Below, one piece after another: positions 1-25,205 of a DNA stretch of 64,000 nt (positions within the stretch are counted from its first letter, which is position 1; the number at the start of each line of letters is the position of its first letter). Where the stretch lies: NCBI GenBank assembly GCA_963663165.1, contig OY760175.1:5568001-5632000 (forward strand), in the 5' to 3' direction. Source of the DNA: an uncultured Desulfospira sp. GTDB taxonomy: Bacteria > Desulfobacterota > Desulfobacteria > Desulfobacterales > Desulfobacteraceae. A program made the translations under genes and the position numbers. Below the pieces are notes generated by a model, which was not told the origin of the DNA, did no database searches, and saw only the letters and a program-made list of their open reading frames with translations.

Positions 1-540
1 TCTGAAGGTACCAAAGGACCTATTGAATATGAATTTACCAAAAGACGAGTGGTACTTTCCAAAGGAAACACGCCTACAAAATCGGTGTGGCTGATCATGA
101 GGCGAACCCTTGGGAAATCCCCGGATTATAAATTTTTCCTTAGCAATGCCGGGGTTAGTGCCAGATTAAAGCTTTTTGTATGGCTTAGTGGTATTCGTTG
201 GGCAATTGAACAGTGTTTTGAGGAAACCAAGACTGAACTCGGCATGGATCATTATGAGGTCCGTAAATACCCAGGCTGGAATCATCATATAATAACGTGC
301 ATGCTTGCACATTTTTTCTTGTGGCACCTGAAAATCAGGATGGGAAAAAAAAGCTCCATCCATTACAGTGTCGCAGCTTAGAATACTAATGGAGGTGGTT
401 TTGCCATTGAGACCTTGTCGTTTTCATACCGTTATGCAATCGGTTTTGTATTACCAAAGGCGCAATCACGCTGCATATCTATCGCATCGAAAAAGGAGGC
501 TTCTTGATAGAAAGAATACGCACTAAGTTACGTTGTAGGG
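1..540 (+). mobile_element. IS701-family element, right part (copy 1, truncated by window edge)
   Basis: Sequence matches 18439-18978; ends in terminal IR GTTACGTTGTAGGG; encodes transposase C-terminus (RWAIEQCFEETKTELGMDHYEVR). Confidence 0.9.
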
Positions 541-645
541 TTATGTAGCGTGTTTGATTATGTTGTGAGTTTTATTCATTTTTATTCAAAAAGATTTTTC
601 AAATCTTTCATTTTATTCGTATAATTCCAAATCATATGCATAGAA

Positions 646-673
646 AAAGCCCGGAGTAGCCCCTCCGGGCTTT
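646..673 (+). promoter_or_regulatory. Conserved stem-loop upstream of the accessory gene pair
   Basis: AAAGCCCGGAG-TAGCCC-CTCCGGGCTTT (11-bp stem); analogous hairpin at 15760-15790 on minus strand. Confidence 0.6.
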
Positions 674-768
674 GATTGTGAACTCCCGTCGATAGCCGGA
701 GAAGCCCACACACACAGTTATATTTCTATATCATTTTCCGGTTATCTGCAATACCGGAAAAATCTAAA

Positions 769-1155
769 ATGCTTTTAATTCCAAATACATGCCGATGGTG
801 CCATTTCGTATTTTTTGTTTGCAGGTTCTGCTGGAGAGGGCAGGCCTATTGTTGCAGGGACTGCCGTAAGGCCGGAATCCTCAGAAACAAAAGAGAAGCA
901 CAGCGACGATACCGCCAGACCGAGAAGGGGAAAAGACGGCATCGGGAAGCCGAGAACCGGCGTCGGCATCGAAAAAAAATTCAAGAGACAAAAAACATGG
1001 ATGATACAGCTTCCACAGTGCTGCCTGCTTGGTGTAGGACAATAATATTGTGGATTTTGTTTCAGATTCAGGGCCTTCCAATCAAACCATATTGTCAGTT
1101 CTGCGGCTCTTCAGGTCAAGTCGTCACACAATTTCCCCGGCGGGGATATGGATAA
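769..1155 (+). CDS. Cys-rich putative Zn-binding protein (RIT accessory gene 1)
   Basis: CxxC..CxxCWRGQxYCCxxC, basic helix, CxFCG..FPRRGYG; homolog at 15221-15691. Confidence 0.8.
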   Translation: MLLIPNTCRWCHFVFFVCRFCWRGQAYCCRDCRKAGILRNKREAQRRYRQTEKGKRRHREAENRRRHRKKIQETKNMDDTASTVLPAWCRTIILWILFQIQGLPIKPYCQFCGSSGQVVTQFPRRGYG

Positions 1156-1177
1156 ACGTAAAAACTGGAGGCGCGGC

Positions 1178-1588
1178 ATGGTAAAAAAAGAAATCCTGAA
1201 CCCTTCAAGGGTGCGTTGTATCAAAGGAGGATTTAGTTTTATCCCCCATCGGTTTCTTACGGGTGGATTTTTGCGAGCATTAAGCCGGGACGAGTTGTTA
1301 TTGTATTTTTTCCTGGTTCTGGCCGGTGACCGCAACGGATTAAGTTTTTACAGTTATGATAAAATATGCACCCTGCTAAAAATGCAACTGGACCAGTACA
1401 TTGAAGCTCGGGATGGATTGATGGAAAATGATCTGATTGCCTTTGACGGCACCATTTACCAGGTGCTTTCCTTACCGGCCAACCTTATACAATCTGCTGT
1501 ACAAAAAAAATCTTCCCTGAACAGCCGTCAACCTGAATCAGTTGGAAAAATTTTGAGCAAACTGGTTATGGAGGCCGATCATGGTTGA
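1178..1588 (+). CDS. Putative winged-helix/HTH protein (RIT accessory gene 2)
   Basis: GGAGG RBS before ATG 1178; homolog at 14836-15258; overlaps the first recombinase start. Fold is inferred. Confidence 0.75.
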   Translation: MVKKEILNPSRVRCIKGGFSFIPHRFLTGGFLRALSRDELLLYFFLVLAGDRNGLSFYSYDKICTLLKMQLDQYIEARDGLMENDLIAFDGTIYQVLSLPANLIQSAVQKKSSLNSRQPESVGKILSKLVMEADHG

Positions 1589-2498
1589 GCAGACACCCAA
1601 AAGTCCGCCCGGTTATGATCTGGATCAGATCCGCCGGGATTATCTGGACCATATGCTTAAAATCAAGGAAAGCTCTCCTTCTCAAACCTGTTGCAGGACC
1701 AAAATTATCAAAGCGTTTGACAGTTATCTGCAAACATCGGGAGTCTCACTGGTCAATATAAACATAGGGCATGTTGATGATTTTCTGGCAAGGTTCAATG
1801 CCCCATATGCAAAGAGTACCCAGGGGGTATACCGTTCCTGTTTTCGAGGCTTTTTGCACTACCTGTATAATGAACGGCATTTGATCCAACAGAATTTAGC
1901 CCCGCTTGTGACCGGTCCGCCAATGTTTGCTCAAGTCAAGCCTCCTAAATTTTTAAGACCCGGTGAAGTCCGTCAGTTATTTGATCATTTGCCCTGTGCA
2001 ACATCCAAAGAGCTTCGTGTCTATGCACAGGTTCACCTGGCTTATTATCTTGGATTGCGCCCCATTGAAATCAGCCGCCTTACTCTGGACGATATCTGTT
2101 TTGCCAAAGGACTGCTAAACCTGGAAAACACAAAAAATGCAAAGCCCCTTCAATTGCCCATTCCCGATGAAGTTATCAAAGCAATCACCGCTTATATCGT
2201 TGGAGGCAGGCCTAAAAGTCAGTCTCGCTCTCTTTTTTTAACCAGCCATTGCCCACCTTACAGAGCTGTAAGTGCCTGGCTCACCAGGCACGATTTAACA
2301 AAGGCGTTGCGGGCTGCCGGTCTTCCCGGTACAGGATATTGGCTGCGCCACACCTTTGCACAAAACATGCTGGAAGCAGGTGCCGGCATTTTTGAAATCA
2401 AAGAAATGATGGGGCATTCCATCATTGATTCCACAAAAGTATATCTAAGTATCCACAAGGAATTGATGCGCCGGGTGTTGTTCGATGAAACCGTTTAA
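1581..2498 (+). CDS. Tyrosine recombinase (RitA-like)
   Basis: GLRP, LRH, GHS and Tyr motifs. Confidence 0.9.
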   Translation: MVEQTPKSPPGYDLDQIRRDYLDHMLKIKESSPSQTCCRTKIIKAFDSYLQTSGVSLVNINIGHVDDFLARFNAPYAKSTQGVYRSCFRGFLHYLYNERHLIQQNLAPLVTGPPMFAQVKPPKFLRPGEVRQLFDHLPCATSKELRVYAQVHLAYYLGLRPIEISRLTLDDICFAKGLLNLENTKNAKPLQLPIPDEVIKAITAYIVGGRPKSQSRSLFLTSHCPPYRAVSAWLTRHDLTKALRAAGLPGTGYWLRHTFAQNMLEAGAGIFEIKEMMGHSIIDSTKVYLSIHKELMRRVLFDETV

Positions 2499-3459
2499 AA
2501 GCTTTTTGGCCACAGAGATGGAAAACTTTATTGTTTACCGGCAAGGACTGGGATACAGTTGCCATATGCTCCGGTGGGCCTTGCTTACCTTTGACGATTT
2601 TTTAATGAGGCAGCCGGATCTCTCAGACATTTGGATGCCCCATTTTTATATCACCTTTAAAAATGAGATTGGCCTTGAGCCCTCCGGCGTAGCCAGCATT
2701 CTAAATGTAGTTCGAGGCTTTTTTGATTATCTGAAACGGCAGCGGATAAATCTTGATAACCCTTTGAAAGATGTGACCGCTCCGGCCCGGCGCACCTTCA
2801 TCCCCTTTATATTCTCACCGGAGCAGGTAGAAATGTTACTGGGGGTGGTATGCGGACGGATCCGGCAAACCCCTATGCGGTTCCTTAAAGATTACAGTGA
2901 ATATCTGGTGATCCTTCTGCTTGCCCGCTGTGGGCTGAGGATGAATGAACCCTTGCGCCTGAGATTGAAAAATTACCGGCCGGATGAAAAGACGATTTAC
3001 ATAGAGAAAACCAAGTTCAAAAAGGACCGTCTTATCCCTATTCCAAAATCAACTGCCATGCAGATTGACAACTATCTTTTAACCAGGGCCGCTTTAATTG
3101 AAAACGATATGAATCCCTACCTGTTCATGGGGATAGGGGAAAACGGCTTGAACGATAACCGTATTCGCTCTGTTTTTCACGATGCTGTGCGTCAAATCGG
3201 GATCCGCCGCCCAAGGAAAATTATCGGCGACACGACCTTTGGGAAGCCCACTCCGCACTGTTTACGGCACTCTTTTGCCATTAACACCTTGAAGGCAGCC
3301 ATTGCCCGGAAACAATCACCCCGGAATGTGCTGCCGGTGCTTGCCGGCTATATGGGTCATGTTGAGTATAAATACACCATGGAATATTTGAAAGCAGTTG
3401 ATGCTGAAAGCCGCGACAGCCTGTTCAAATTTACCACCGGCAGAAGGGATGAATCATGA
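2485..3459 (+). CDS. Tyrosine recombinase (RitB-like)
   Basis: CGLR, HCLRHSFA, YMGH, EYL motifs; overlaps neighbours. Confidence 0.9.
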   Translation: MKPFKSFLATEMENFIVYRQGLGYSCHMLRWALLTFDDFLMRQPDLSDIWMPHFYITFKNEIGLEPSGVASILNVVRGFFDYLKRQRINLDNPLKDVTAPARRTFIPFIFSPEQVEMLLGVVCGRIRQTPMRFLKDYSEYLVILLLARCGLRMNEPLRLRLKNYRPDEKTIYIEKTKFKKDRLIPIPKSTAMQIDNYLLTRAALIENDMNPYLFMGIGENGLNDNRIRSVFHDAVRQIGIRRPRKIIGDTTFGKPTPHCLRHSFAINTLKAAIARKQSPRNVLPVLAGYMGHVEYKYTMEYLKAVDAESRDSLFKFTTGRRDES

Positions 3460-4475
3460 ACCTGACCCGTTGCGTTGTTCAATTTTTTGACCAATACCTG
3501 CCTTATGTCAAAGGGTGCCGCCCCAATACGATCAAAAGTTACCGGGATACCATGCGCTTTTTTTTACCGTTTGCTGCCGAATACCACAGCGTAAAGGTCA
3601 GTTCGCTCAATCTGGAACATATCACGGTAGAATTAATTTTGCAGTTTCTCAATGAGCTTGAATCCAAACGGTCCAACACGGCTAAAACCCGGAACCAGCG
3701 CCTGGCCGTTTTAAAGTCTTTTGCCAAAATGATCCGTTTTATTTATCCCGAGCAACAAAAACTGACCAATGCGATCCTTGATATTCCCCGGAAACGAAGC
3801 CAACACAAGTTGATCGGATTTTTGTATCCCCAGGAGATCAATCAAATCCTTAATGCGGTCCAACTTAAAAGAAAGGACGGGTTCCGAGATTATACCCTTC
3901 TGTATCTATTATATGATACCGGTGCCAGGGCAACGGAAATCGCTACCCTTGAGATGGATTATTTTGATTATGAAAATCAAACTCTGGCGATTCTTGGGAA
4001 GGGTAACCGATATCGACAAGTTCAGTTGCTTGGGAAAACAGTAGAGCTTATGCATCAGTATATTGAAGAACATCGCAATACGCCAATCCATCCGTTTAAA
4101 AAAAGGCTGTTCATCAACCAAAGAGGAACAAGCTTGACCCGCCACGGTATCAACCGGATCTGTAAAAACTACCTTGAACAGGCTTTACCGGCAAAGCGGA
4201 CAGCGACCATGCACCCCGTCCATAGCTTCCGTCATTCGTGTGCCGTTCGAATGCTCTCAGAGGATCGGCCTTTATCTGAAATTAAGAATCGCTTGGGGCA
4301 TTCTAATGTCAAATCCACAATGGTTTACTTAAAGCTTGATCTAGGCCAGAAGCGACATTTACAAGAGAACTTCATCCAGTTCACCAAACAGCACCTGAAA
4401 TCTGATCCGAAAATTGAGGAGTTGATCCAGTGGGAAAACAAGCAAAACGTTCTTGAGTGGCTGGATAGTCTATAG
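3456..4475 (+). CDS. Tyrosine recombinase (RitC-like)
   Basis: TGAR, GKG, HSFRHS, LGH, VYL motifs. Confidence 0.9.
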   Translation: MNLTRCVVQFFDQYLPYVKGCRPNTIKSYRDTMRFFLPFAAEYHSVKVSSLNLEHITVELILQFLNELESKRSNTAKTRNQRLAVLKSFAKMIRFIYPEQQKLTNAILDIPRKRSQHKLIGFLYPQEINQILNAVQLKRKDGFRDYTLLYLLYDTGARATEIATLEMDYFDYENQTLAILGKGNRYRQVQLLGKTVELMHQYIEEHRNTPIHPFKKRLFINQRGTSLTRHGINRICKNYLEQALPAKRTATMHPVHSFRHSCAVRMLSEDRPLSEIKNRLGHSNVKSTMVYLKLDLGQKRHLQENFIQFTKQHLKSDPKIEELIQWENKQNVLEWLDSL

Positions 4476-4658
4476 ATCCTTACAGACTTCATCACCAGCA
4501 CTCCTCAGGGCAAACTGTAGCTGTTTATTATGTTTAGTGATTTGTTGCAAATTTGTCATACCCTTGATAACCAACTGTTTATTTGAACGATTTTGACTTA
4601 CGGCATTACGGCGCCCAAACCACGGTCAATCAAGGCTTCAGGACCGCTCGCAACATAA

Positions 4659-4746
4659 CTCCAATAAAATCAGAATACTGACTGCTTTCATCTTTAAAAC
4701 ACCAAGTCATAACAACAGAATTGTCAACAACAAAATCATTACCCAT
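4659..4746 (-). pseudogene. 5' fragment of PIN-domain (VapC-like) toxin interrupted by RIT copy 1
   Basis: Reads MGNDFVVDNSVVMTWCFKDE.. directly after the antitoxin stop codon; PIN N-terminal VVD motif. Confidence 0.7.
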
Positions 4747-4986
4747 TTATGCTCTTCCTTCGTCTATCATATCTCTAATTGAAAGGCCTTTAAGAGCATG
4801 TTTTTCACGAAATCTACGTAATTCAGCTATTACCTTTTTAGGCTCAGTCTTTTTTGAATGCATTGGTGGTTGTAGAACAGCCACTGGAATCCCGTGTTTT
4901 GTAATAGTAATTCGTTCTCCCTTAGATACTCTATCAAGTAGTTTTGGAAGATGTGTCTTGGCCTCATATGCACCAATTATTTCCAT
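4747..4986 (-). CDS. Phd/YefM-family antitoxin
   Basis: EAKTHLPKLLDRVSKGERITITKHGIPVA signature. Confidence 0.9.
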   Translation of the reverse strand: MEIIGAYEAKTHLPKLLDRVSKGERITITKHGIPVAVLQPPMHSKKTEPKKVIAELRRFREKHALKGLSIRDMIDEGRA

Positions 4987-5100
4987 TATGCTCCTCCTTA
5001 AAAATTTAGACTAGTTTAAAACTAGTCTAAATCAGAGTGGTGAATTTGTCAAGCCGGAGCTCATCTATCAATTTTGCATTATTGGGGATACGGTGCAATG

Positions 5101-7411
5101 ATCGGGTAGGTCGGGGGCTTTACAGCCCCTTTCCCCCCTCAGAACCGTACGTGACAGTTTCCCGTCATACGGCTCAAGCATTTCTAAGGCTGAGCCTTGC
5201 GGGGCCGCCCGGCTGTTTTCTCTTGCCAATGCTGAAATTTACAGTTATTTCATTACATATTTTCTCGGCCGCTGTGACAGGGATCACCTTTGGTTTCACC
5301 CGTCTTGCCCGGAAGTATTGTTGATGTTCCGGGTCAAAAGGATTTGCATCGCTTTTGATTTTGATGTGCCGTTGGATATGTATGCTGTGCGCTTTGATGA
5401 GTTCGGATGTTCTCGGGTTGCCGTTTTTATCTTTGACCACCGTTGAGAACCGCCCCGGTTTTGAGCCCTTTGACCAGTACGTCTTTTTCAACCATTGGAT
5501 GCTTTTATTCCGGTGACGTCGTTTCACCCATTGCCACGCTTCATTCCATATGTACCCGTCAACATAGCTGAAAGTTTTTGCTGAGACAACATGTTTGTGA
5601 TAGTTCGCCCAACCCCTTATTTTCATGTTAAGATCATGAATCAGAGCCTCGGCTTTCGATCCCCGGTGCTTCCTGAACGTCTCGTGGATTTTATCCATGA
5701 AGGCCTGCACATTTTTCCTGGATGGTTTAATGAGCAGTTTGCCGTCATACTTACGAACGTTTTGGCCCAGAAAATCGAATCCCCGGTCAATTCGGGTAAT
5801 CAGGGTCTTTTCTTCAGACAGGGATAGATCCCGTTCCGAGAGAAATCTGATTATGGCCGGTTTGACCTTGTCTTCAAGAAGTTCCCGGGTTGCACCGGTA
5901 ATAATGAAATCATCAGCATACCGGATGACGTTGATTTTGGAACTGATGTCCTTACCGTTGCGTCTGTCCCTGACAGGGGCAACAGATCCGGCAGTCCCTT
6001 CAATGCCGTCCAGAACCATGTTGGCCAGTGTGGGAGAGGCAATGCCGCCTTGCGGTGTTCCCCGGCCTGTTGGAAAGAATTTACCGTCCTCCATAAACCC
6101 GGAAGCCAGCCATTTGGTAAGGATCATCTTATCCATAGGGATATGGTCGATCATCCAGTCATGGCTGATTTCATCAAAGCAGGCTTTAATATCCGCTTCA
6201 AGTATCCAGACCGGCGAGGTTTTCTTGGCCAGTGTATTAAAGCATTGGGATATGGCGTCCGCACATCGCCTGTATGACCTGAATCCGTATGAATTGTGGT
6301 CGGCCAGTGTTTCTGCTATCGGCTCCAATGCCAGTTTATACAATGCCTGAACAGCCCTGTCGATCATTGTGGGAATACTTAACGGACGTTTCTTGCCGTT
6401 CTTTTTGGGAATATAGATCCGCCTGAGCGGTGATGGCTGGTATCCTCTCCGTTTGAGGTTGCCTGCTGCCTGGAATTTCTGCCTGGCGGTTTTCCAGGTG
6501 ACGTTGTCGACACCCGGAGTGCGTTTCCCTTTATTGGAGGTCACGCGTTTTACAGCTAACAGCTTTGCCTGGTAAGAGTGGGTCAGAAGCCACTGGAGGG
6601 CCTTGGCCCGTCTGTATCTTCCTTCTTTCACAGCCTTTGCGATACGCATTTGCAGTCTTTTAACAGCTTCATAAATGGCTTTCCAATGAATGGACTTCCA
6701 ATTCCTGAAACTGCCGATGGGCGCACCAGCTGTTGCCGTCATTTGCCTTCCCATCTTCAAAGATTCTCCAGACTATCTCGCAAAGAAACACCTGCCCGGG
6801 TGTGCCTGTAGTCACACCCGCCGGACGTCAGCTCCCTTTCGGGCCGGATAATGTTGAAGGTCAGTAGATCCATCTCAATCCGTATCCACCTCATTACAAG
6901 ACGGCATTCGCTTCTTCCTGCATCTTATTCCCGCACCCCCATCAGTGTGCCTTGCGGTTTCACCTGCCGAATGTTCCCGGCGAAGATACGGGGTTTCCAC
7001 GTTCCGCATTATTGCCAATTAGTGGATGACTTAGGTCCGCCCTCTGCACCGGCGGCGCAACATCTCACGCGGCAGTTGAGAAACCTGCATCCTGACCGCT
7101 CACCTTTTGGTCCCAGCTTACCAGCCTCTTTAGCTTGTTCTCCCTGACGGTACTTACGGAACATTCAACTACTTTGACCATATCATCCAAACCCTTGCCC
7201 TCACCCGGAATGAGGCTTCCAGGAGGGTATCCGCCTCACGGCTTCCACCCCTTCCGCAGTTGCGGAATTCGGTACGTTGTCGGTTGGGCTTCACACCGTT
7301 GCCGGATGCACCGACCACCGCATGCCACCTAGGGTACCGGCAGGAGAATGCCGGGTTTGGTCAGGACCGACTGGCCCGCCAAACAGCCAATAATGCGACT
7401 TCGTGTCGCAC
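5101..7411 (-). mobile_element. Group II intron, full length (2311 nt)
   Basis: 5' GTGCG at 7411; domain V GAGCCGTATGACGGGAAACTGTCACGTACGGTTC; domain VI ending CCCGAT at 5101; internal RT ORF. Confidence 0.95.
5174..6760 (-). CDS. ltrA: Group II intron reverse transcriptase/maturase, no evident HNH endonuclease domain
   Basis: TPGVD, GTPQGG, RYADD, GFDFLG motifs plus X domain. Confidence 0.93.
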   Translation of the reverse strand: MKMGRQMTATAGAPIGSFRNWKSIHWKAIYEAVKRLQMRIAKAVKEGRYRRAKALQWLLTHSYQAKLLAVKRVTSNKGKRTPGVDNVTWKTARQKFQAAGNLKRRGYQPSPLRRIYIPKKNGKKRPLSIPTMIDRAVQALYKLALEPIAETLADHNSYGFRSYRRCADAISQCFNTLAKKTSPVWILEADIKACFDEISHDWMIDHIPMDKMILTKWLASGFMEDGKFFPTGRGTPQGGIASPTLANMVLDGIEGTAGSVAPVRDRRNGKDISSKINVIRYADDFIITGATRELLEDKVKPAIIRFLSERDLSLSEEKTLITRIDRGFDFLGQNVRKYDGKLLIKPSRKNVQAFMDKIHETFRKHRGSKAEALIHDLNMKIRGWANYHKHVVSAKTFSYVDGYIWNEAWQWVKRRHRNKSIQWLKKTYWSKGSKPGRFSTVVKDKNGNPRTSELIKAHSIHIQRHIKIKSDANPFDPEHQQYFRARRVKPKVIPVTAAEKICNEITVNFSIGKRKQPGGPARLSLRNA

Positions 7412-7539
7412 CCTAACGGGGAGCTCAGCCGCCCGGAGACTATAACCGAGGACTTCCCCAAAATTAAATTCTTTTCAGAAACCGAGGTTTTTCGAAAAGC
7501 CGCTATCTCTCCGGGTCGGCCTGCAGCGTTTTGTTAGCC
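7412..7539 (-). repeat. attC site (intron inserted in R')
   Basis: CCTAAC...GTTAGCC palindrome. Confidence 0.9.
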
Positions 7540-7541
7540 TT

Positions 7542-7856
7542 TTATAAATTAAGTGCAAATTCAATAGCTTTTCCAACCTGCCCCATTTTTCTTTTGGACA
7601 GCGAAGTAATTAATGCGCCAATTTTCCCTTTTGAAACAGTTTGTATATGATCACAGTTTACAGCACAGTCATTTTTCATAAAATTTTCAATTTTAGAAAG
7701 AAATACTTCTGATGGAATGTCTCTTATCGTACTCGTAATAGGGGCTACAGTAACTTCGCCAAGATACTCTATTATTGAGTCACGGGTTAGAATTAAGACA
7801 GGTCTCTTTTTGTCCGGTTTCGCAAATTTATACCAACGTATTTCACCACGCTTCAT
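7542..7856 (-). CDS. MazF/PemK-family toxin
   Basis: MKRGEI..KKRPVLIL..VAPITS motifs. Confidence 0.9.
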   Translation of the reverse strand: MKRGEIRWYKFAKPDKKRPVLILTRDSIIEYLGEVTVAPITSTIRDIPSEVFLSKIENFMKNDCAVNCDHIQTVSKGKIGALITSLSKRKMGQVGKAIEFALNL

Positions 7857-8086
7857 TAGTCGCACCAAGCCTGCTCGTCTTCCCATTCAATGAATTCATC
7901 AGGTGTTACAGGATGACGTAGATATCCCTCTTTATGTTTAAGCTCCAACTGCTCAAGTTTATAATTTTTGATAGCATCGCGTAAGGCCTTTCTTGTAAAA
8001 GCTGAGCGGTTGGTGCTAAGCGCTTTAGATATCTGATCGACAGTTGCAACGAGATCTTCGTCAAGTGTCATTTGTATGGTTTTCAT
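7856..8086 (-). CDS. Ribbon-helix-helix antitoxin
   Basis: MKTIQMTLDEDL..NRSAFTRKAL; coupled to the toxin; the longer ORF call runs through an attC. Confidence 0.85.
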   Translation of the reverse strand: MKTIQMTLDEDLVATVDQISKALSTNRSAFTRKALRDAIKNYKLEQLELKHKEGYLRHPVTPDEFIEWEDEQAWCD

Positions 8087-8175
8087 AATCGCTCCATATT
8101 TTATGTTGATCTTTATAGCTATAATAACCCACACAAGAACAGGCGTCAAGAAATCAGGATGAGTTTGGTTCTGCA

Positions 8176-8306
8176 CGCTAACGGGGAGCTGAGGGGCCAG
8201 GCTTTTTAAACCCAAAAACTCCCGATAAAAAGATAAATTTTCCTGAACCAGGCACTCCCGAAAGGCCGAGTAGTAAGCCTGGTCCCTCTCCAGCGTTTTG
8301 TTCGGC
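8176..8306 (-). repeat. attC site
   Basis: CGCTAAC...GTTCGGC. Confidence 0.9.
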
Positions 8307-8312
8307 CTCGTT

Positions 8313-8756
8313 TCACTCCTCCCATGTAGGGTATTGTTGTGGTGCTGGACCAATACTTTCTATCAGCTGGGGATATTCAATTTCTTTATCTGGTGATTTT
8401 GGCTTTTTTCTTGATTTAGTAATTTTAAAAATCCAATCATCACCAAAATCAAAATGGTAAAATAACTTTAACCCTTTGGGCAAAGGATAGATCTCATTGA
8501 GTGTCATTTGATGATAATTATCAGTTGCTTTTTCGTAATCAAAATCCCAAGCATCTTCTGGAAATAAGGGTTTTCTGTTTCTGAAATGTCTTCCTGTAAA
8601 AAACTCAAATAGGTGATCATTTTCAAATTTGACTGATTTTTGGATAATCAAATGTAAATCATAAAGAGTTGATTCTTCGTCTATTTCAATCATGCGAACA
8701 CAGTCTTCCTCAAGATATCTTCCCCACTCACATTCAATTTTAAGTGTCCAAATCAT
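8313..8756 (-). CDS. pRiA4b ORF-3-like protein
   Basis: TLYDLHLIIQ, HLFEF, YHFDFGDDW motifs. Confidence 0.75.
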   Translation of the reverse strand: MIWTLKIECEWGRYLEEDCVRMIEIDEESTLYDLHLIIQKSVKFENDHLFEFFTGRHFRNRKPLFPEDAWDFDYEKATDNYHQMTLNEIYPLPKGLKLFYHFDFGDDWIFKITKSRKKPKSPDKEIEYPQLIESIGPAPQQYPTWEE

Positions 8757-8788
8757 CTTTTCTGCCTTTAAAGGTATTGTTAAATGGG

Positions 8789-9783
8789 ATCGGGTAGCCG
8801 GGGGTAGTTATCTACCCCAGGCCCCCTCAGAACCGTACGTGACAGTTTCCCGTCATACGGCTCAAGCATTTCTAAGGCTAAGCCTTGCGGGGCCGCCCGG
8901 TTGTTTTAGCAATAATGAAATTTACAGTTATTTCATAGCATATATCCTTGAGCATCTGCCCGGAAAGTATTTTTCTTTTTCCGGGTCAAAAGAGAACATC
9001 CTTTTGAAAGATGCCTCTGGCGTGTATGCTGTGTGCTACTTTAACAACCTTTGCGATACGCATCTACAGTCTTTTAACAGAATAAATCTGCAGATGGGCG
9101 CACCAGCTATTGCCGTCATTTGCTTTCCCATCTTCAAAGATTCTCCAGACTCTCTCGCAAAGAAACACCTGCCCGGGTGTGCCTGTAGCCACACCCGCCG
9201 GAGGTCAGCTCCCTTTCGGGCCGGATAATGTTGGGATGTTCTCCTCAATCCGTATCCACCTCATTACAAGATGGCCTTCGCTTTTTCCTGCATCTTACTC
9301 CCGCACCTCCATCAGTGTGCCTTACGGTTTCACCTGCCGAATACTCCCGGCGAAGATACGGGGTTTCCACGTTCCACACTATTGCCAATTAGTGGATGAC
9401 TTAGGCCTGCCCTCTGCACCGGCGGCGCAACATCTCCGTGCAGGCAGTTAGGAAACCGGCAGCCTGACCGCTCACCTTTTGGTCCAAGCTTACCAGCCTC
9501 TTTAGCTTGTTCTCCCTGACGGTACTTACGGAACATTCAATTAATTTGACCATATCATCCAAACCCTTGCCCTCACCCGGATTGAGGCTTCCAGGAGGGT
9601 ATCTGCCTCACAGCTTCCACCCCTTCCGCAGTTGCGGAATTCGGTACGTTGTCGGTTGGGCTTCACACCGTTGCCGGATGCACCGACAACCGCATGCCAC
9701 CTAGGGTACCGGCAGGAGAATGCCGGGTTTGGTCAGGACCGACTGGCCCGCCAAACAGCCAATAATGCGACTTCGTGTCGCAC
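8789..9783 (-). mobile_element. ORF-less (internally deleted) group II intron, 995 nt
   Basis: Same 5' GTGCGACACG, domain V and CCCGAT 3' end as 5101-7411; only scraps of the RT ORF remain. Confidence 0.9.
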
Positions 9784-9912
9784 CTTAACGGGGAGCTGAG
9801 GGGCCAGGCTTTTAAAACCCTAAAAGCTCCGATAAAAGTTAAAATTTTATGAACCAGGGACGTCCGAAAGGCCGCGCAGTAAGCCTGGTCCCTCTCCAGC
9901 GTTTTGTTCTGC
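9784..9912 (-). repeat. attC site (mini-intron inserted in R')
   Basis: CTTAAC...GTTCTGC. Confidence 0.9.
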
Positions 9913-9916
9913 AATA

Positions 9917-10147
9917 TCATTTACATTTCTTGTAAACAAACTCTGGATCTAAGTCAGCTCCTGACTCCCATTCAATGGTATCAAAAACTACCCGAACACG
10001 ATTGAATGCACTTTGATTTTTAAGGCTTTGAAAAATTCCAAAATCCAAAAGTGGCTTCATATCCAGAATTCCATGCTCTCCGTTATCAAAAATGATTGAA
10101 AGTATATAATTTTCTTTCGGAGTTACTTCTTTGACGGCCGGATACAT
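9917..10147 (-). CDS. DUF2442-like protein (putative TA partner)
   Basis: FDNGE..IEWESGADLDPE; paired with the DUF4160-like gene. Confidence 0.8.
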   Translation of the reverse strand: MYPAVKEVTPKENYILSIIFDNGEHGILDMKPLLDFGIFQSLKNQSAFNRVRVVFDTIEWESGADLDPEFVYKKCK

Positions 10148-10157
10148 ATTTTGCCTC

Positions 10158-10424
10158 CTATTGAAGAGGTTGGATGTTAAACGGCTTTTCACCATTCATA
10201 AGTAGTGTCCAATTAGCCATTAGTTCTTCTTGATGAAGTTCTGCCCACGCAATGACAAGCCTTGATTGCTTTTTGGGCAATTGACCTTGGGTTATTTCGC
10301 AAGTTTGAATATCGACTGTAGCCCTATGTTCCCCATAGTATACATGAAAATGCGGGGGTGGATGTTCACTTGGGGCATAATACATTCGTATGATGATGCC
10401 GTAGAACATTGAAATTGTGGGCAT
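10158..10424 (-). CDS. DUF4160-like protein
   Basis: MPTISMFYGIIIRMY..EHPPPHFH..WAELHQEEL. Confidence 0.85.
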   Translation of the reverse strand: MPTISMFYGIIIRMYYAPSEHPPPHFHVYYGEHRATVDIQTCEITQGQLPKKQSRLVIAWAELHQEELMANWTLLMNGEKPFNIQPLQ

Positions 10425-10542
10425 AAATTCTCCTCGGTAATCAGGGGTATTTCATGTTTTTGGCGCTTTCATTTTTTCAGCATAGCCATAATATATGTAT
10501 ATCATCATTGTACCCGTTTACCAATTCGGTTTTGTTTTGAAA

Positions 10543-10672
10543 GCAGAACGGGGAGCTGAGGGGCCAGGCTTTTAAACTACAAAAGCTCCCATAAAAGTTT
10601 AAATTTTCCTGAACCAGGGACACCCAAAAGGCCGCTCTGTAAGCCTGGTCCCTCTCCAGCGTTTTGTTGTGC
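10543..10672 (-). repeat. attC site
   Basis: GCAGAAC...GTTGTGC. Confidence 0.9.
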
Positions 10673-10824
10673 AATATTTTTTGCTACTATTTTGGAAATA
10701 ATGCTTAGGGCCTCAGAAAAATTAATATCCACAATTCCATAGTCTGAATTCTGATTTCTATAGACAACATGGAATCGATAGTTTATGGTCAACATGGAAG
10801 ATTACATAAAAATACAGGAGGACC

Positions 10825-11430
10825 ATGTTTGATCATTCTAAGCACAATTTACCCAAAACTATATCGGAATTAACGCCACCACTAAAGGATTTTCTGAATA
10901 CCACTCGAAGCAAATTAAAAGGCCATGAACGGCGCCAATTCATGGCACGCGTTGTCTCCCTTATGGGGCACGGCGGACAACTAAAGGCTGAAAGAGAACT
11001 GGGTTGGGATCGGAAAACAATAATCAAAGGGCGACGGGAAATAGAAAGCGGAGTTACCTGTGTTGATAATTTTTCCGGACGAGGCCGGAAATCGTGTTTA
11101 GAACATTTTCCGAATTTAAAAGAGGACATAACTCGTATTGTAAACCCTATATGTCAGACTGATCCTACATTCCGTACCCAGAATTTATATTCCCCAATAT
11201 CTGCGAATGAAGTATTCCGTCGATTAGTTGACGACATGGGATATGACCCTGAGAATATGCCAACAGTACGGACTCTATCCACCATAATGAATAAATTGGG
11301 TTTTAAACTGAAGAAGGTCGCCAAAGCCAAGGTAAAAAAAAATTCCTGAAACAGACATCATTTTTGAATATGTGCATAGGACAAACCAACTAGCCGATGA
11401 AACAGATGGCGTTTTACGTATCTCAATGGA
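10825..11430 (+). pseudogene. ISAzo13 transposase 5' part
   Basis: Same as the 31334.. copy up to the insertion point. Confidence 0.85.
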
Positions 11431-11699
11431 TGTTATCGCCGGTGATCAAGGTCACCACCTTTGCCGGCAACGAACCGTCCCCACCTGTGATATATTGACT
11501 TGTCAGGGCTTTTCGCAGGTGTAATATTTGAGGGAAGATACCATTCTCATTTGTATCGATAATTTGCAACACAATCAGCTAAAACAAGATATATTAATGG
11601 AATAGCGCCATAGCAATCAATTTGGTTGCAGTAAAGCACCTGCGGTTGGAAGAACACGCTCACCAACAGGCGTCAATCCCGATTTTGGAAGTAAAAAAG

Positions 11700-11733
11700 C
11701 CGGGTTTTATACGAGGACGTATAAAACCCGGCA
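11700..11733 (-). terminator. Probable terminator hairpin after istB
   Basis: GCCGGGTTTTATACG..CGTATAAAACCCGGC followed by a T-run on the minus strand. Confidence 0.6.
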
Positions 11734-11748
11734 GATGTGAAGAGATGG

Positions 11749-12537
11749 TTATTGGGGTATGGACTGGGGATTAGTAGTGTTCGTTGTGTTGGGACCTTCC
11801 GTTCGATAACTGAGTCCGTCCCGGATATTAATGATGTGAACATTGTGCATCAATCGATCGATAATGGCATGAGTTACAACCGGATCTCCCAGAGTCGTCC
11901 CCCAATCCTCAAGACTGATTGAAGATGTGGCAATAAAGGCGGTATCGTCCTGGCAGACGCTGATCAAATCCAGCAGCAGGCTGGGATATTCCGGCTTTGT
12001 GCGGATACCGCCCACATTATCTATGATCAGAAGATCAAAACGGCTTAAGCCGGCGACCACCTCATCGGTGGATTCGTCAGCCAATGACGTATACAGCATG
12101 GCCAGAAGTTTTTGCAGGGAAAAAAATCGAACCTTATAACCCGCACGGCAGGCCTGGTCGCCAAGGGCTGAGGCAATATGAGTTTTGCCCGTGCCGGTTT
12201 TCCCAAAAATAAGCAGCGGCTGCTTTCGATCCACAAAGGATAGCTCCATCAGATCTTTGAGGTGCTCTACATTCAGGCTTGGCTGGAAGTTAAAATCAAA
12301 GTTATCAAAGGTCATGTTTCTGGGGAAATCCGCTGTTTTTAGCCGCTTTTCAAGGGATCGGTGCTTTCTTGCCTTCATCTGTACGTCCACGATGTCGGCC
12401 AGGAACGCCAAATGACCGGATTGATTTTTCTGCGCCTTGGCAAGGGCCTGCTCCAGATATTGGGCCATATCCTTGAGATAAAGCTTGCGCAGTTTCTTTT
12501 TAACCTGGTCGCTTAAGTTTTCATTCATCCTTGCCAT
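11749..12537 (-). CDS. istB: IS21 helper ATPase IstB
   Basis: FDFNFQP, GKTGTGKT Walker A, LLIID, AIIDRLMH. Confidence 0.92.
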   Translation of the reverse strand: MARMNENLSDQVKKKLRKLYLKDMAQYLEQALAKAQKNQSGHLAFLADIVDVQMKARKHRSLEKRLKTADFPRNMTFDNFDFNFQPSLNVEHLKDLMELSFVDRKQPLLIFGKTGTGKTHIASALGDQACRAGYKVRFFSLQKLLAMLYTSLADESTDEVVAGLSRFDLLIIDNVGGIRTKPEYPSLLLDLISVCQDDTAFIATSSISLEDWGTTLGDPVVTHAIIDRLMHNVHIINIRDGLSYRTEGPNTTNTTNPQSIPQ

Positions 12538-14023
12538 CCATTGTTTTTCTGTTAATCAGGTGGTCATACCTTTGTGGGTTATCCTGCTCCACTGAACAGG
12601 ATTTCAAATAGCTCCGGGTGTTGTTGGGCAGACCTTTTCCGGCTTTTGTTTTGTTTGAAGCTTTAATGTTTTTCCCCTGGATGATACGCAGGACGGCATC
12701 AGCACTAAATGAGTCAAACCGCGTGGCATGAGCTAATGCCCCTGAGACCACATCCGCACCATAGCGGTCGGCATATTTGAGGATACGGCCCATATGGTAC
12801 CCGGCAGCGCTTTTCCGGGTTTCTTTCAATCCGTTATAATAGACCTGCGCCACCTCACCCAATCTCAAAAAGGCATCTTTGAGCAATTGACTCTGGCCTG
12901 TCATCTTCCTGTACAGGGCTTCATGTTCAGGCAACACCTGCCTGTCTTCTTGAGTGTAAACATGCCGGCAATCCATCGTTTCATCACACCATATTTCAAT
13001 GTGATCACGGAACAAACGGACCTGGACATAACGGCCTATCAGTTCAGGATTGGCAGAGTATCGTTTTTTGTCGATGGTGACACAAAAATCAACGTTAACA
13101 AGTCGACGTACTTCCTTAAAAAATTGATCCGTTTTATTCCATGGCACAGGCTTTAACAGACTTTTTTCCCTTGCCAGGCGATCCACAGGCCTTTCCCGGG
13201 TGGTACCGTGGATACGGACATTGGCTGTGTTCGCCCGCCAGGCATCGGCCTTGTTATTGAGATCCTCAAGATCAATAAATTCTTTGCCTCTAAGGAAATT
13301 GTCTTCAATATACCGGAACGGCCGCTCTACCTTGCCGTGTCGTTCCTTTTTGCCGGGTAGAAGGATGACGATCTCAAAGTCATACTCCTGGGCAAACCGT
13401 TTAAATACCGGATTGATCCAAACGGTTCCGGGGCCCGTGTGCCTGCCCACCGTGGTCATATTGTCATAGGTGATTTTGTGGGGAACCGCCCCGATCTCGT
13501 CAAACGCCTCTTCATGCAACCGGATCACTGATTCTATAGTTTCATCAAAAAAGTGACGTATAAATATCCAACGACTGAAGCACAATACAAAAGATCCGGT
13601 ATGCACCACCACGCGTTGTCCACCCATGTACACACTATGAGGACTCCAGTCCATCTGCCCCTCATCTCCAGGGGCATGATCAATTGGAGGCCTGGGCACC
13701 TTCAAGCCTTTGGGCCGGATTATTCTGATATACTCCTTGAGGATGGAGTATCCGCCCGTGTACCCCAACAACGTGATCTCTTCCAACACCCGAACCCCGC
13801 TGAGATGTTTTTCTTTTACAAGGTAACCGATTTTGGCCTTGTAAGGATCAAGTTTGCTTTTGCGGGGACTGGTTTGAGGCGCATTAATAACATTGTTGCA
13901 GCCCAATGCCCTGCGCACTGCCTTGCGGCTGTGCCCGGTCTGTTTTGCTGTCTGACGGATGGATGCTGTGCGCCCAAAGACTTTACGAATACGTTCCTGT
14001 TCCTTTTCACTCAACCGGCTCAT
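12521..14023 (-). CDS. istA: IS21 transposase IstA
   Basis: N-terminal HTH, SKLDPYK, QMDW, YDN, GKVER, HGTT motifs. Confidence 0.92.
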   Translation of the reverse strand: MSRLSEKEQERIRKVFGRTASIRQTAKQTGHSRKAVRRALGCNNVINAPQTSPRKSKLDPYKAKIGYLVKEKHLSGVRVLEEITLLGYTGGYSILKEYIRIIRPKGLKVPRPPIDHAPGDEGQMDWSPHSVYMGGQRVVVHTGSFVLCFSRWIFIRHFFDETIESVIRLHEEAFDEIGAVPHKITYDNMTTVGRHTGPGTVWINPVFKRFAQEYDFEIVILLPGKKERHGKVERPFRYIEDNFLRGKEFIDLEDLNNKADAWRANTANVRIHGTTRERPVDRLAREKSLLKPVPWNKTDQFFKEVRRLVNVDFCVTIDKKRYSANPELIGRYVQVRLFRDHIEIWCDETMDCRHVYTQEDRQVLPEHEALYRKMTGQSQLLKDAFLRLGEVAQVYYNGLKETRKSAAGYHMGRILKYADRYGADVVSGALAHATRFDSFSADAVLRIIQGKNIKASNKTKAGKGLPNNTRSYLKSCSVEQDNPQRYDHLINRKTMDGKDE

Positions 14024-14843
14024 GGTGCCCTCCTATCAACTCATTGAGCCGTTTCATCCGGGCACCGGCCCGCCCTATAAAGTCTTTAAGGGCGCAGACC
14101 TTGGAACCATTGATCGTGCCGCTGCCAATGCAGTTGTTCAGCTTGGACATTTTTGAAAGAATGGCATCAATAATCAAATAATAATTTTCCTTGTCCCGGC
14201 TTACGGACTCCAGCGCTTGCCTGGGAGATTCAAGCAGGTGGCGCCTGGCTCCGGGATCACTGGTCTTGCACCACAGGTCCACCAGACGGTTCACCTCCCG
14301 GGTTTTAAGGTTGTGTTTTTGAATACAAAGAGAAAAATCGGCCTGGGTTGCAGGCTGCAACCGCGCCAGTGACGGACCGACCCCGGCAGGGAGCAGCCCA
14401 AGTTTGATATCGTGGACAATTTCCGGGGTCAGGCTGCGGATCATGGAAAGCCGTCGGCAAACCCAGCTTTTATGCCGCTCAAGGAGTATCGCCGCTTCAA
14501 CCTGATTGAGCCCTTCTATTTCTACAAGTTCCCAGACCACCAGGGCCTCCATGATCGTGGAAAACCCATCCGGGCGGTTCAGAAGGTAGAGCAATGCCTT
14601 GGCTTCTGCAGCACTTTTTTTCAACACAGCCACTTTAAGCGTCTTCATGCCAAGAAGGCCTGCACAGCGATGCCGCTTGAAACCGTCTATTAAAATATGG
14701 CAACCTCCTTGCTCAACCGCAACAACAGCCGTTAATTGGCCATGCTTGACTAATGAAGCCGCCATCTTTTCCTGGGCACCGGCGTGGACCGGCCGCAGGA
14801 ATCCCAGACGTAAATCCAATTGGTCCGGACGCAGGTTAATCAT
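14007..14843 (-). CDS. ParB/Srx N-terminal domain + HTH protein
   Basis: SL..HGQL..V, LIDGFKR motif, HTH (LNQVEAAILLERHKSWVCRRL). Confidence 0.8.
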   Translation of the reverse strand: MINLRPDQLDLRLGFLRPVHAGAQEKMAASLVKHGQLTAVVAVEQGGCHILIDGFKRHRCAGLLGMKTLKVAVLKKSAAEAKALLYLLNRPDGFSTIMEALVVWELVEIEGLNQVEAAILLERHKSWVCRRLSMIRSLTPEIVHDIKLGLLPAGVGPSLARLQPATQADFSLCIQKHNLKTREVNRLVDLWCKTSDPGARRHLLESPRQALESVSRDKENYYLIIDAILSKMSKLNNCIGSGTINGSKVCALKDFIGRAGARMKRLNELIGGHHEPVE

Positions 14844-15258
14844 TTGGACCTCCGGCTATATTGAGGCTTTTTTGAAAAATCTCCCCGATTGAGATAAGGC
14901 CACTGCCGCCGGTGGGTTGCTTAGGCGCCTTGGACGTCGGTGCTGCAACATTTTTTTTGGGAAGGGAAAGCACTTGAAACAGTCGGCCGTCAAAGGCTAT
15001 GAGATCTTTATCAATGAGCCCGTTCCTGGCCTGGATATATTCGTCCAGGCGGATGGCCGTCAATGAACAGATTTTATCATAGCCGTAATAAGACATTCCC
15101 TGACGATCTGCCACCATCACCAGAAAAAGGTACAGCACAAGCTCCTGGTGGTTCAGGCTGCCCCAATACCCCTGGCGGATAAACCGGTGGCTTATCCATG
15201 CGAAACTGCCGTTAATTTTTCTAATTCGATGGTCCTTCAACGGTTCCTTGGTAATCAT
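14836..15258 (-). CDS. Putative winged-helix/HTH protein, homolog of RIT accessory gene 2
   Basis: I.G.F..I.HRF, EL.LY.FLV...DR.G.S.Y.YDKIC, YI.AR.GL...DLIAFDG...QVLSLP shared. Confidence 0.8.
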   Translation of the reverse strand: MITKEPLKDHRIRKINGSFAWISHRFIRQGYWGSLNHQELVLYLFLVMVADRQGMSYYGYDKICSLTAIRLDEYIQARNGLIDKDLIAFDGRLFQVLSLPKKNVAAPTSKAPKQPTGGSGLISIGEIFQKSLNIAGGPND

Positions 15259-15691
15259 TTTTACCCTCCTTGGAAATATAATGATGAAAATTGTCGCCTG
15301 AATACCGTCTGCCATATCCCCGCCGGGGGAATTGATCTACAATCAGACCTTTTCTTCCGCAAAAACAGCAGCATGGATGGGAAGACGGAGGCGTTACCCG
15401 AAGACTATCATTGGATTTGGAGGGTGTTGAAGTGTCATCATCCACGGTTTTTTGAGAATTTCTTAATCTCCGCTCTTTTTCCTGCCGACGATGGGCTAAC
15501 TTACCTTTTTCAGTTTGTCGATATTTCTTCTGGGCGTTACGGTGAGCTTCTCTTTGAGCAGTTTCCCGACAGGATTCACAGCAATAAATCTGTCCACGCC
15601 AGCAACTGTGGCAGATATAAAAAATGCTGCCGCATCGTTTACACTGGATTTCTTTTAATAAAACGATCTCCACATTTTCCGTTCTTGCCAT
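15221..15691 (-). CDS. Cys-rich putative Zn-binding protein, homolog of RIT accessory gene 1
   Basis: CWRGQ.YCC..C, YRQTEKGK, C.FCG, QFPRRGYG shared. Confidence 0.8.
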   Translation of the reverse strand: MARTENVEIVLLKEIQCKRCGSIFYICHSCWRGQIYCCESCRETAQREAHRNAQKKYRQTEKGKLAHRRQEKERRLRNSQKTVDDDTSTPSKSNDSLRVTPPSSHPCCCFCGRKGLIVDQFPRRGYGRRYSGDNFHHYISKEGKNDYQGTVEGPSN

Positions 15692-15759
15692 AAAACGGAA
15701 GCCGTGATTATATGAAGATGTTGGGTAGCTTCCGTATTTTATATGGATGTCTGCTTTTT

Positions 15760-15790
15760 GAAGGCTCGAAGCGGCCTACTTCGAGCCTTC
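15760..15790 (-). promoter_or_regulatory. Conserved stem-loop upstream of the accessory gene pair
   Basis: GAAGGCTCGAAG-TAGGCCG-CTTCGAGCCTTC on the minus strand. Confidence 0.6.
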
Positions 15791-15970
15791 CTTATTTTTC
15801 AAATCCATCCAAGAAACAAAACCAAATTCAAAGAAAAAAAGGAAGAAAATATATTTTTAAAATATGGGATGAAGAAGAGACAAAGTAAAAAGGATGGAGG
15901 CTTTGTTACCGGCTAAAGGGGTGGCCTGCTTCATCGCCATAGGTGGGGACGGTTACGACCGGCGGTAACA

Positions 15971-16605
15971 CAATGGACGCAAAAGCCACTATTAAAATAG
16001 GGCCTTATTCCCGAGGCGGATATAGTCGTTGCAATCTTAAAGCGGCGGACCATGATTTTAAACCCGATTCCCTTTTGAAACTTTTCGGTATCAACATACC
16101 TGCTCTGGATGAAAATTATATGTACTTCACTGAAAGCAACATCACCTCTGATTTCATGATTGATGCGCTGGAATCACTCTGGCCTTCTTTGAACGCAAGA
16201 TTCGCCCCACATACACTGGTGATCAATCTTGATAATGGGCCGGAAAATAGTAGCCGAAGGAGCCAATTCATTAGTCGCCTCGTGGACTTTGCCAAATCAG
16301 CATTTGTAAATATTAGTTTGGTGTACTATCCCCCGTACCACAGTAAATACAACCCAATAGAGCGAGTTTGGGGTGTTTTGGAAAATCATTGGAAAGGCGA
16401 ATTGCTGAACAAAATTGAAAAGGTTCTCGGTCTATGTCGAACAATGACATGGAAAGGAGAAAATCCTGTCGTCAAATTAATCAAAGGTGTTTACCCGACA
16501 GGGGTACGTTTGGTCAAGTCCGCCGTGAATAATATAGAAAACAAAATTATTCGGATTCCAGGGATTGAAAAATGGGCTGTTGATATTCCATGCTATGAGG
16601 AATGA
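15971..16605 (+). pseudogene. ISAzo13 transposase 3' part
   Basis: DNGPENS, YYPPYHSKYNPIER motifs. Confidence 0.85.
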
Positions 16606-19385: not shown

Positions 19386-19512
19386 GCACAACGACAAGCT
19401 CAGCCGACCGGGGCAAATTGCCGAGCGCGTTGTAAAAGCCAAATCCTTTCAAAAATCAAGGTCTTTCAAAAGTCGCTAGGCCCCCCGGGTCGGCTGGAGC
19501 GGCTTGTTAGGT
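19386..19512 (-). repeat. attC site
   Basis: GCACAAC...GTTAGGT. Confidence 0.9.
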
Positions 19513-21003: not shown

Positions 21004-21025
21004 ACGTAAAAACTGGAGGCGCGGC

Positions 21026-25181: not shown

Positions 25182-25205
25182 ACTTTCTTTTCGGTATTTT
25201 GTGGA

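Follow-up and report, generated by a model that had tools for sequence, protein, structure and literature searches.

Recombinase-in-trio (RIT) elements are described as units of three genes and ~3.5 kb in the parts of Van Houdt et al. 2012 (PMC3414803), Janssen et al. 2010 (PMC2864759), PMC8138268 and PMC10214605 consulted, and Table 1 of the last source records that their movement has not been replicated under laboratory conditions. The IS21 family, in the sections of the literature covered, comprises IstA and IstB alone. A regulator encoded at the head of a transposition unit is described for IS1, where InsA, the product of the first open reading frame (ORF), carries zinc-finger and helix-turn-helix (HTH) motifs, represses its own promoter and also acts as a competitor at the IS1 ends (PMC12428005, in the part consulted). 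Here we analysed 64,000 nucleotides (nt) of an uncultured Desulfospira sp. (assembly GCA_963663165.1, contig OY760175.1, positions 5,568,001 to 5,632,000, forward strand), referred to below as the window. In it, a RIT-type element and an IS21-family element both open with a small cysteine-rich gene (gene 1A) followed by a winged-helix (wH) gene. These two genes are one version of a two-slot leader cassette that stands at the 5′ end of transposition operons and is exchanged among unrelated transposon classes. Three mobility machineries are found behind the slots: RitABC; IstAB, with or without a preceding ParB-like gene; and a transposase with an AAA ATPase in transposons with TG..CA ends. The feature is real, widespread and unnamed.

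The RIT-type element resembles described RITs in its consecutive, overlapping trio of tyrosine recombinase genes of distinct A, B and C types, its inverted terminal repeats and its occurrence as eight identical copies in the genome, and all three Rit proteins match PF00589 (Phage_integrase; expect values (E) 1.4e-23, 5.3e-17 and 7.5e-30). It departs from a trio-only content of ~3.5 kb in being 4,124 bp long with five genes, of which a zinc-ribbon gene, itself preceded by a leader, and a wH gene stand first (Table 1). Alignment of the eight copies with their flanks, and of the left end with the reverse-complemented right end, placed the termini at TTATGTAGCG... on the left and ...CGCAACATAA followed by CTCCAA on the right. 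Contigs of four public runs, compared with window positions 200-5000, break at 541 and 4664, and none of them carried a joint indicating a circle or an empty site. The two window copies have identical ORFs (769-4475 and 20617-24323), including the leading gene pair (20617-21436 in copy 2). The genes are tightly packed, with overlaps of 8 nt between wH and ritA and of 14 and 4 nt within the trio, and a candidate sigma-70-like promoter, proposed from its match to the consensus, lies ahead of the leader. Five of the eight copies share a repeated target, ..ATCTCCAA | RIT | AA(A/T)A(A/T)TGGACTTGGGA.., which points to site-specific insertion into another repeat; the flanks of both window copies (535-540 and 4665-4700) differ from this shared target.

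The IS21-family element lies on the minus strand, spans 4.5 kb (ORFs 15691-11749) and is present in five identical genome copies, each with its own 7-bp target duplication, three of which were read out. Its IstA (DDE/rve) and IstB (AAA+) exceed curated NCBIfam cut-offs (NF033546, 216.8 bits against 160; NF038214, 225.4 against 200), the DnaC-like IstB also matches PF01695 (196.4 bits against 24.1), and the ends are TG..CA inverted repeats. The departure from a two-gene IS21 lies again at the 5′ side, where three additional coupled genes — zinc ribbon, wH and ParB-like — precede istA. The wH and ParB-like genes overlap by 8 nt, and overlaps between subsequent genes in the two operons range from 4 to 17 nt. 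The third accessory protein can be called ParB-like at most: it scores 29.6 bits with TIGR04285 (E 4e-7; cut-off 315) and 17.6 with TIGR00180 (cut-off 58.45), short of the curated ParB/Noc cut-offs, and matches PHROG ParB-like families at E 6e-5 and no Pfam family.

An initial annotation, made from the letters and ORFs of the window, had proposed that one two-gene module rides on both elements independently of recombination chemistry. The homology on which it drew is clear: the first genes of the two elements are 42% identical over 128 amino acids (aa; E 1e-30) and the second genes 46% over 137 aa (E 1e-42), in the same order and with the quoted motifs present in the pairwise alignments. Both pairs are internal to their elements, since the ends are set by copy alignment and contig breaks, and head overlapping operons, each with an 8-nt overlap at the end of wH. 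Two details needed correction. Positions 646 and 15790, taken as limits of the shared unit, belong to leader hairpins 5′ of gene 1 (644-673 and 15760-15790) and are not element ends, and the ParB-like third gene of the IS21 accessory set had been overlooked. The suggestion that the pair lacked a description agrees with our searches: all database homologs of these proteins are named 'hypothetical protein', and no extra RIT or IS21 genes are described in the literature searched (RIT, IS21, trio and passenger genes, with sources covered in part).

Table 1. Coordinates of the two-slot elements, their parts and neighbouring repeats (window positions unless a contig is given)
Feature	Position	Strand	Remarks
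RIT-type element, copy 1, five genes	541-4664	+	8 aligned genome copies; contig breaks in public runs
RIT-type element, copy 2, same gene set at +19848	20389-24512	+	541-840 = 20389-20688
RIT left-end repeats (two), TTATGT(A/T)G(C/T)G	541-552, 558-569	+	
RIT right end, CTCGCAACATAA	4647-4658		6-bp core CTCCAA at 4659-4664
Candidate sigma-70-like promoter	-35 596-603; -10 620-625	+	-10 TATAAT; 10/12 consensus matches
Structured leader of RIT gene 1A	644-768	+	
RIT leader, hairpin 1 stem arms	649-656, 663-670		
RIT leader, segments X, Y, Z	696-704, 736-741, 754-759		
RIT gene 1A	769-1155	+	128-aa Cys-rich protein
RIT wH gene	1148-1588	+	ORF 146 aa; likely start Met11 at 1178
ritA, ritB, ritC	1581-2498, 2485-3459, 3456-4475	+	three overlapping tyrosine recombinase genes
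IS21-family element, five genes	11431-15970	-	ends TGTTACC...GATAACA; 5 aligned copies
IS21 target duplication, TCCATTG	11424-11430, 15971-15977		7 bp
IS21 gene 1A leader	15674-15790	-	hairpin 1 at 15760-15790, then X, Y, Z; leader model R1 82.1 bits
IS21 gene 1A	15221-15691	-	ORF start ATG 15691; GTG 15673 likelier start
IS21 wH gene	14836-15315	-	
ParB-like third accessory gene	14007-14843	-	278 aa
istA, istB	12521-14023, 11749-12537	-	NCBIfam and Pfam matches
Two further two-slot elements (RIT with CHC2; second TG..CA type)	G000:C1:7985-11724 and 1372326-1376151		
~136-nt repeats	7415-7535, 8180-8316, 9787-9922, 10547-10682, 19378-19513, 20344-20389, 25199-25334, 25806-25941, 26598-26733		

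The same genome holds further elements built on this plan. A 4,277-bp transposon with TG..CA ends (six copies, 6-bp duplications) encodes gene 1A, a CHC2 zinc-finger protein, a 184-aa protein, a 582-aa putative transposase with no match in the PDB or in the plasmid collection, and an AAA_22 ATPase; in its ends, duplications, AAA_22 ATPase and pair of small zinc proteins (CHC2 being one) it resembles TG..CA transposons that combine a transposase with an AAA ATPase and small zinc proteins, and differs in that its first gene and leader are of family A, the slot-1 type also found in the RIT and IS21 elements of the window. Gene 1A of the IS21 element is in fact closer to that of this transposon (60% identity) than to that of the RIT (42%). 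A second TG..CA type, with a first gene of slot-1 family C followed by CHC2, has five copies by tblastn, with a split transposase frame in the copy inspected, and brings the TG..CA total to eleven; in a related genome the second type is likewise headed by a family C gene (L223). One RIT type carries a first gene resembling families B and C, with CHC2 in the wH position (four copies by tblastn, one inspected), and another combines a family D gene with wH (four copies). Six slot combinations therefore coexist — A+wH+RIT (8 copies), A+wH+ParB+IS21 (5), D+wH+RIT (4), A+CHC2+TG..CA (6), C+CHC2+TG..CA (5) and B/C-like+CHC2+RIT (4) — and the two-slot layout occurs in ~32 element copies of this genome. 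Against this background, the idea of a single two-gene module stands in part: RIT and IS21 elements do share the pair, but the slots are separable, gene 1A occurring without wH in the TG..CA transposon, where CHC2 takes the place of wH, and slot-1 families A, B and C replacing one another before wH. On the upstream side of one TG..CA copy we also observed a DruA-like gene (PF14236, E 3e-40) coupled to a DDE_Tnp_1-type transposase gene (L019:961-3242; G000:C1:1871961-1874242).

We then examined wH neighbourhoods in other genomes, using one genome per species. The scan yielded 356 loci, and in the best 80 of these the gene after wH was RitA in 59 and IstA in 14; in 4 a ParB-like gene stood between wH and IstA, and 3, one of which lies at a contig end, had none of these. 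The wH gene thus sits beside RIT or IS21 genes, in the same position and orientation, in 77 of the 80 loci. Before wH, slot 1 was occupied by family A in 34 loci, B in 28, C in 14 and D in 1, with a contig edge in 2 and an unclear gene in 1, and the families crossed with the machinery that followed (A with RIT 29 and with IS21 4; B with RIT 14 and with IS21 13; C with RIT 13). A reciprocal view came from 80 metagenome loci centred on gene 1A: wH was the next gene in 72, followed by RitA in 51, IstA in 2 and a contig end in 19. Among the loci without wH (L137 and L138 are examples), a ParB-like gene came directly after gene 1A in two, and six others remained, five with nothing after gene 1A, some of them at contig ends, and one (L167) with a RitA-like match upstream only. 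On Caballeronia plasmids the arrangement recurs at nine places in six records as hypothetical 167 aa, hypothetical 133 aa (wH), istA and istB.

Within the phylum the distribution is patchy, with wH in 26 of 400 sampled genomes. Of 16 wH regions annotated from that sample, 12 carried fragments of IstA or IstB, in several cases broken or nested, on the same strand as wH, and 8 of these had a family-B-like gene before wH; of the other four, one had only an opposite-strand IstA/IstB pair nearby, one only a weak opposite-strand RitA-like match, one the L217 arrangement, and one nothing adjoining wH. At L217 (G384:C16) an IS21-type element is interrupted by a RIT immediately behind its wH gene, with IstA/IstB following further on; at L066 and L222 RITs lie beside or inside other RITs. 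In a genome of the same family (G206), seven near-identical wH copies (e.g. C1:51778-52113) each contain one in-frame TAG and could represent a decayed family or read-through.

For the 80 wH proteins and three from this genome, a quick maximum-likelihood tree (145 columns, many forks unresolved) called for at least five changes between RIT and IS21 labels, at least two of them forced by branches with support of at least 95, and for 17 changes of the upstream slot-1 family. None of 500 label shuffles required as few RIT/IS21 changes. With RitABC after wH at 59 and IstA/IstB at 18 of the 80 loci, these label changes bear out the proposed portability across unrelated recombination chemistries; taken as a whole, the initial interpretation was right in spirit and too simple, and is partly supported. 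Repeated landing of an independent small mobile unit in RIT and IS21 elements would also place the same genes in both, and would suit the sharp onset of shared DNA at hairpin 1 and the frequency of nesting at these loci, L217 among them. We regard such nested insertion as highly improbable: position and orientation are kept in 77 of 80 loci, the wH stop overlaps the start of the next gene, the unit would be one without a recombinase or ends of its own, and whole elements, the pair included, move as a single unit and duplicate their target.

The slot-1 proteins are small, of zinc-ribbon/basic character, and form at least three families: A, the type found in the window, B/C and D. Family A has eight invariant cysteines (C8, C11, C18, C21, C28, C32, C109 and C112), and its structure model (predicted local distance difference test (pLDDT) 80.1) shows a zinc ribbon at the N-terminus, a basic helical hairpin, and a CxxC knuckle at the C-terminus. 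The profile retrieved 3017 cluster representatives. No Pfam or NCBIfam family corresponds to gene 1A, its model had no Foldseek match with E ≤0.001, and the plasmid collection held no match. The best VIA-align wide score (Z 4.8) covered the helical hairpin alone, the basic helix weakly resembles the rRNA-binding protein bL35 (E 0.02, profile against PDB sequences), and in the ESM Atlas only unnamed clusters were found, the nearest named cluster (NinG, a name on 12% of its members; score 0.87) being a lead at most. For the IS21 copy, alignment with relatives favours the GTG at 15673 as the start. Between families B and C, hhalign detects a common N-terminal zinc ribbon (probability 96%, E 2.5e-9); the family B profile found nothing meaningful among PDB sequences.

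Every gene 1A is preceded by a conserved non-coding stretch that we consider a new candidate cis-regulatory RNA with alternative helices. It begins with hairpin 1 (GCCCGAAG...CTTCGGGC), flanked by A and T runs; in an alignment of 27 sequences this stem is paired in 98.6% of cells and shows compensatory change in 5 of its 11 pairs. Further downstream, segment Y has two possible partners, X (81% paired) and Z (87.5% paired), and the two helices are mutually exclusive. Segment Z contains the ribosome-binding GGAGG, which the Y:Z helix covers. At one Y:Z pair, 19 of the 27 sequences have a U-G wobble, which points to sense-strand RNA as the folded molecule, and when partners were slid as a control, pairing fell to 26-61%. 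Minimum-free-energy folds of four members contained hairpin 1 in all four, Y:Z in two and X:Y in two, with z between -3.5 and -5.1.

The linkage of family A to its own leader is strict. A covariance model of the leader (R1) had 19 strong sites in the genome, which are exactly the gene-1A copies of the three element classes (8+6+5). Across the 80 wH loci it matched 31, 24 of which had been used in building it, and all 31 belong to family A; the three unmatched family-A loci are without upstream sequence, and none of 46 non-A loci matched. Among 4227 Rfam covariance models run on window positions 1-27000 (E ≤1), the only matches were group II intron parts, and the leader was unmatched. A consensus scan for an antisense promoter that could drive an RNA-OUT-like transcript up to hairpin 1 found none. 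Other slot-1 families have other upstream regions: the repeat WAATTCY is present at least twice in the upstream regions of 13 of 17 B loci, 4 of 7 C loci and 3 of 25 A loci. We considered WAATTCY/TAATTCC as a wH binding site and rejected it, as it tracks slot-1 families B/C and is absent from the IS21 and TG..CA elements of this genome.

These features lead us to read slot 1 as an autoregulator of the operon and slot 2 as a DNA-binding helper that is independent of recombination chemistry, a reading to which we assign a probability of about 45%. Three observations suggest autoregulation: each slot-1 family has its own type of cis-region, the family A leader can cover its own ribosome site, and the protein looks nucleic-acid-binding. 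The slot-1 protein would act on its own upstream region and thereby set operon output; in family A it would bind the RNA leader and favour either X:Y, with the ribosome site free, or Y:Z, with the site covered. By analogy, this would resemble the way IS1 is held in check by InsA, the nearest precedent known to work. The slot-2 protein would be made in step with the transposase through translational coupling and would act at a step that does not depend on how DNA is cut, either on element DNA or via a host factor.

What slot 2 does is the point on which the strongest competing explanation turns. The wH family has 7342 relatives, most of them 136 aa long, so that Met11 (1178) is the likely start of the RIT copy. 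In its model, residues 40-110 form a confidently predicted winged-helix core (pLDDT 80-93), yet sequence likenesses are faint. PF13730 (HTH_36) scores 16.6 bits with the RIT and 19.2 bits with the IS21 protein (E 0.001-0.007), under the 25-bit gathering cut-off, and precomputed PF13730 marks on many of the wH homologs listed make a distant relation to HTH_36 likely. The match to phrog_19658 'replication initiation protein' has E 0.006, and the wH profile found no match among PDB sequences. In Foldseek, a Crp/Fnr regulator came first (E 0.011), followed by the RepA_N initiators 4pt7, 5kbj, 4pql and 4pta (E 0.03-0.18), likenesses that are weak, generic to winged helices and divided between regulators and plasmid initiators. 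The slot-2 alternative, found outside the window, is more distinct: CHC2 exceeds the PF01807 cut-off (29.2 bits against 24.9, E 8.4e-7), also matches TIGR01391 dnaG and a PHROG DNA primase family (E 3e-6), and the CHC2 protein of a RIT is 70% identical to that of a TG..CA transposon in the same genome.

The main rival accordingly casts the slot-2 proteins, perhaps with the ParB-like and 184-aa proteins, as replication or priming adaptors that recruit or modulate host replication proteins at a transposition intermediate that must undergo DNA synthesis (for example a nicked circle or the product of strand transfer), whatever enzyme made the cuts. It would explain why the best, weak likenesses of wH are to replication initiators (RepA_N, PF13730, phrog_19658), why its alternative is a primase zinc finger common to RIT and TG..CA elements, and how a DnaC-like IstB fits in; SE-type tyrosine-recombinase transposons, moreover, use nicked circles in a copy-out-like process with a small accessory protein (PMC10214605, in the part consulted). 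Set against it, the wH similarities all fall under family cut-offs, in a generic fold with a Crp/Fnr regulator as the top Foldseek match; searches of these elements revealed neither a primase catalytic domain nor a helicase domain; Table 1 of PMC10214605 lists the mechanism of RIT movement as untested; and the slot-1 gene and leader are left unexplained. On balance we judge an adaptor of this kind possible, though somewhat unlikely.

A second rival holds that the small proteins are architectural or recombination subunits in the manner of Xis, Tn554 TnpC, SE Srap or GInt GinD, contributing to synapsis or directionality through element DNA. Translational coupling to the recombinase genes fits this idea, as does the need of SE and Tn554 for a small extra protein (Srap and TnpC, respectively; PMC10214605 and PMC3414803, as far as covered). 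Rare long forms of wH, 15 in all and mostly single sequences, point the same way: the fusion partners of wH include an IstA N-terminus in P0400, tyrosine recombinases in P0407 and P0410, and an IS110-type transposase in P0405. In overlapping genes such forms may be frameshifts or assembly errors, and they are leads only. RIT and IS21 ends, besides, are unrelated in sequence, no motif common to left and right ends was found beyond the terminal repeats of each element, and IstA retains its own N-terminal HTH and a full NF033546 match. A structural role in recombination is therefore doubtful. P0405 (515 aa, three member sequences) carries a full wH in frame with an IS110-type transposase (PF01548/PF02371) and is possibly a fourth mobility class with wH, or an insertion artefact.

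Insertion sequences carrying passenger genes exist, and the leader genes could be cargo unrelated to transposition, encoding host-directed regulators or anti-defence or anti-silencing proteins of use to the element or its host once insertion has taken place. Their products do match no transposition family, and neither PADLOC nor PHROGs offered an informative family. The cargo explanation is nonetheless improbable: the genes are always first, co-oriented and overlapping with mobility genes; they are retained in three element classes and in thousands of relatives; the family A leader is dedicated to its gene and covers its own ribosome site; and PADLOC was empty save for one weak WH match (E 0.003).

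Several points weigh against autoregulation by slot 1 and a general DNA-binding helper in slot 2. The wH protein is conserved though upstream regions differ between family A and families B/C and end sequences vary as well, and we found no DNA motif that follows it; wH is therefore no obvious candidate for a promoter-specific repressor. As a transcription regulator, a CHC2 finger of primase type would be odd, and it fits the replication adaptor better. From the predicted promoter, X is transcribed before Y, which would leave the leader 'on' by default and makes a trans-acting factor an assumption. The T run of hairpin 1 is longer on the antisense strand, so that the hairpin may serve for insulation or termination rather than for protein binding. 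Comparison of family A with B/C did not establish homology, hhalign giving a probability of 3.6% in one case and no match in the other. Finally, the assignments of slot 1 to families B and C (28 and 14 loci) come from models made from the loci they then classify.

Compared with described systems, the leader genes share with IS1 InsA the placement of zinc-binding and HTH-type modules first in the transcript and, as proposed here, negative feedback (PMC12428005, in part). They differ in being two separate proteins that have no sequence relation to InsA and no domains in common with the transposase, that are exchanged among unrelated transposon classes and that, in family A, come with an RNA leader. 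TnpC, Srap and GinD are likewise small extra proteins, required for recombination and encoded alongside several tyrosine recombinases (PMC10214605, PMC3414803, in the sections consulted), but each is restricted to a single class of element; wH and gene 1 accompany DDE elements as well.

Other repeats populate the window. Two group II intron copies lie on the minus strand (5101-7355 and 8789-9727), with Rfam parts D1-D4/D5 at 7197-7355/5101-5177 and 9569-9727/8789-8865; the first has a 528-aa ORF (5174-6760) and the second is without a long ORF. A family of ~136-nt repeats, starting AACGGGGAGCT(C/G)AG and ending ..CAGCGTTTTGTT, is scattered through the region, and one member adjoins RIT copy 2. 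The window itself starts within another multi-copy element: positions 1-300 are identical to 18439-18738, and a full copy has a 429-aa ORF (17530-18819).

In existing descriptions a RIT is regarded as a minimal machine with three genes, and an IS21 element as one with two. Large natural subfamilies of both, and a third transposon class, start with the same exchangeable small genes. Their sharing implies that unrelated chemistries have some step of transposition, or of its control, in common, and that this step is served by uncharacterised proteins which have thousands of relatives. A bolder version, which we think unlikely, is a plug-in cassette in which a self-regulating zinc-ribbon/leader unit is joined to an adaptor that links tyrosine-recombinase, IS21, TG..CA DDE and perhaps IS110 transposition to host replication or priming; if true, an initiator-type wH or a free primase zinc domain would be traded among transposons like a standard part. 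Two small proteins and a 125-nt leader provide reagents with which to probe what limits or enables movement of these elements, and possibly why RIT transposition has yet to be reconstituted.

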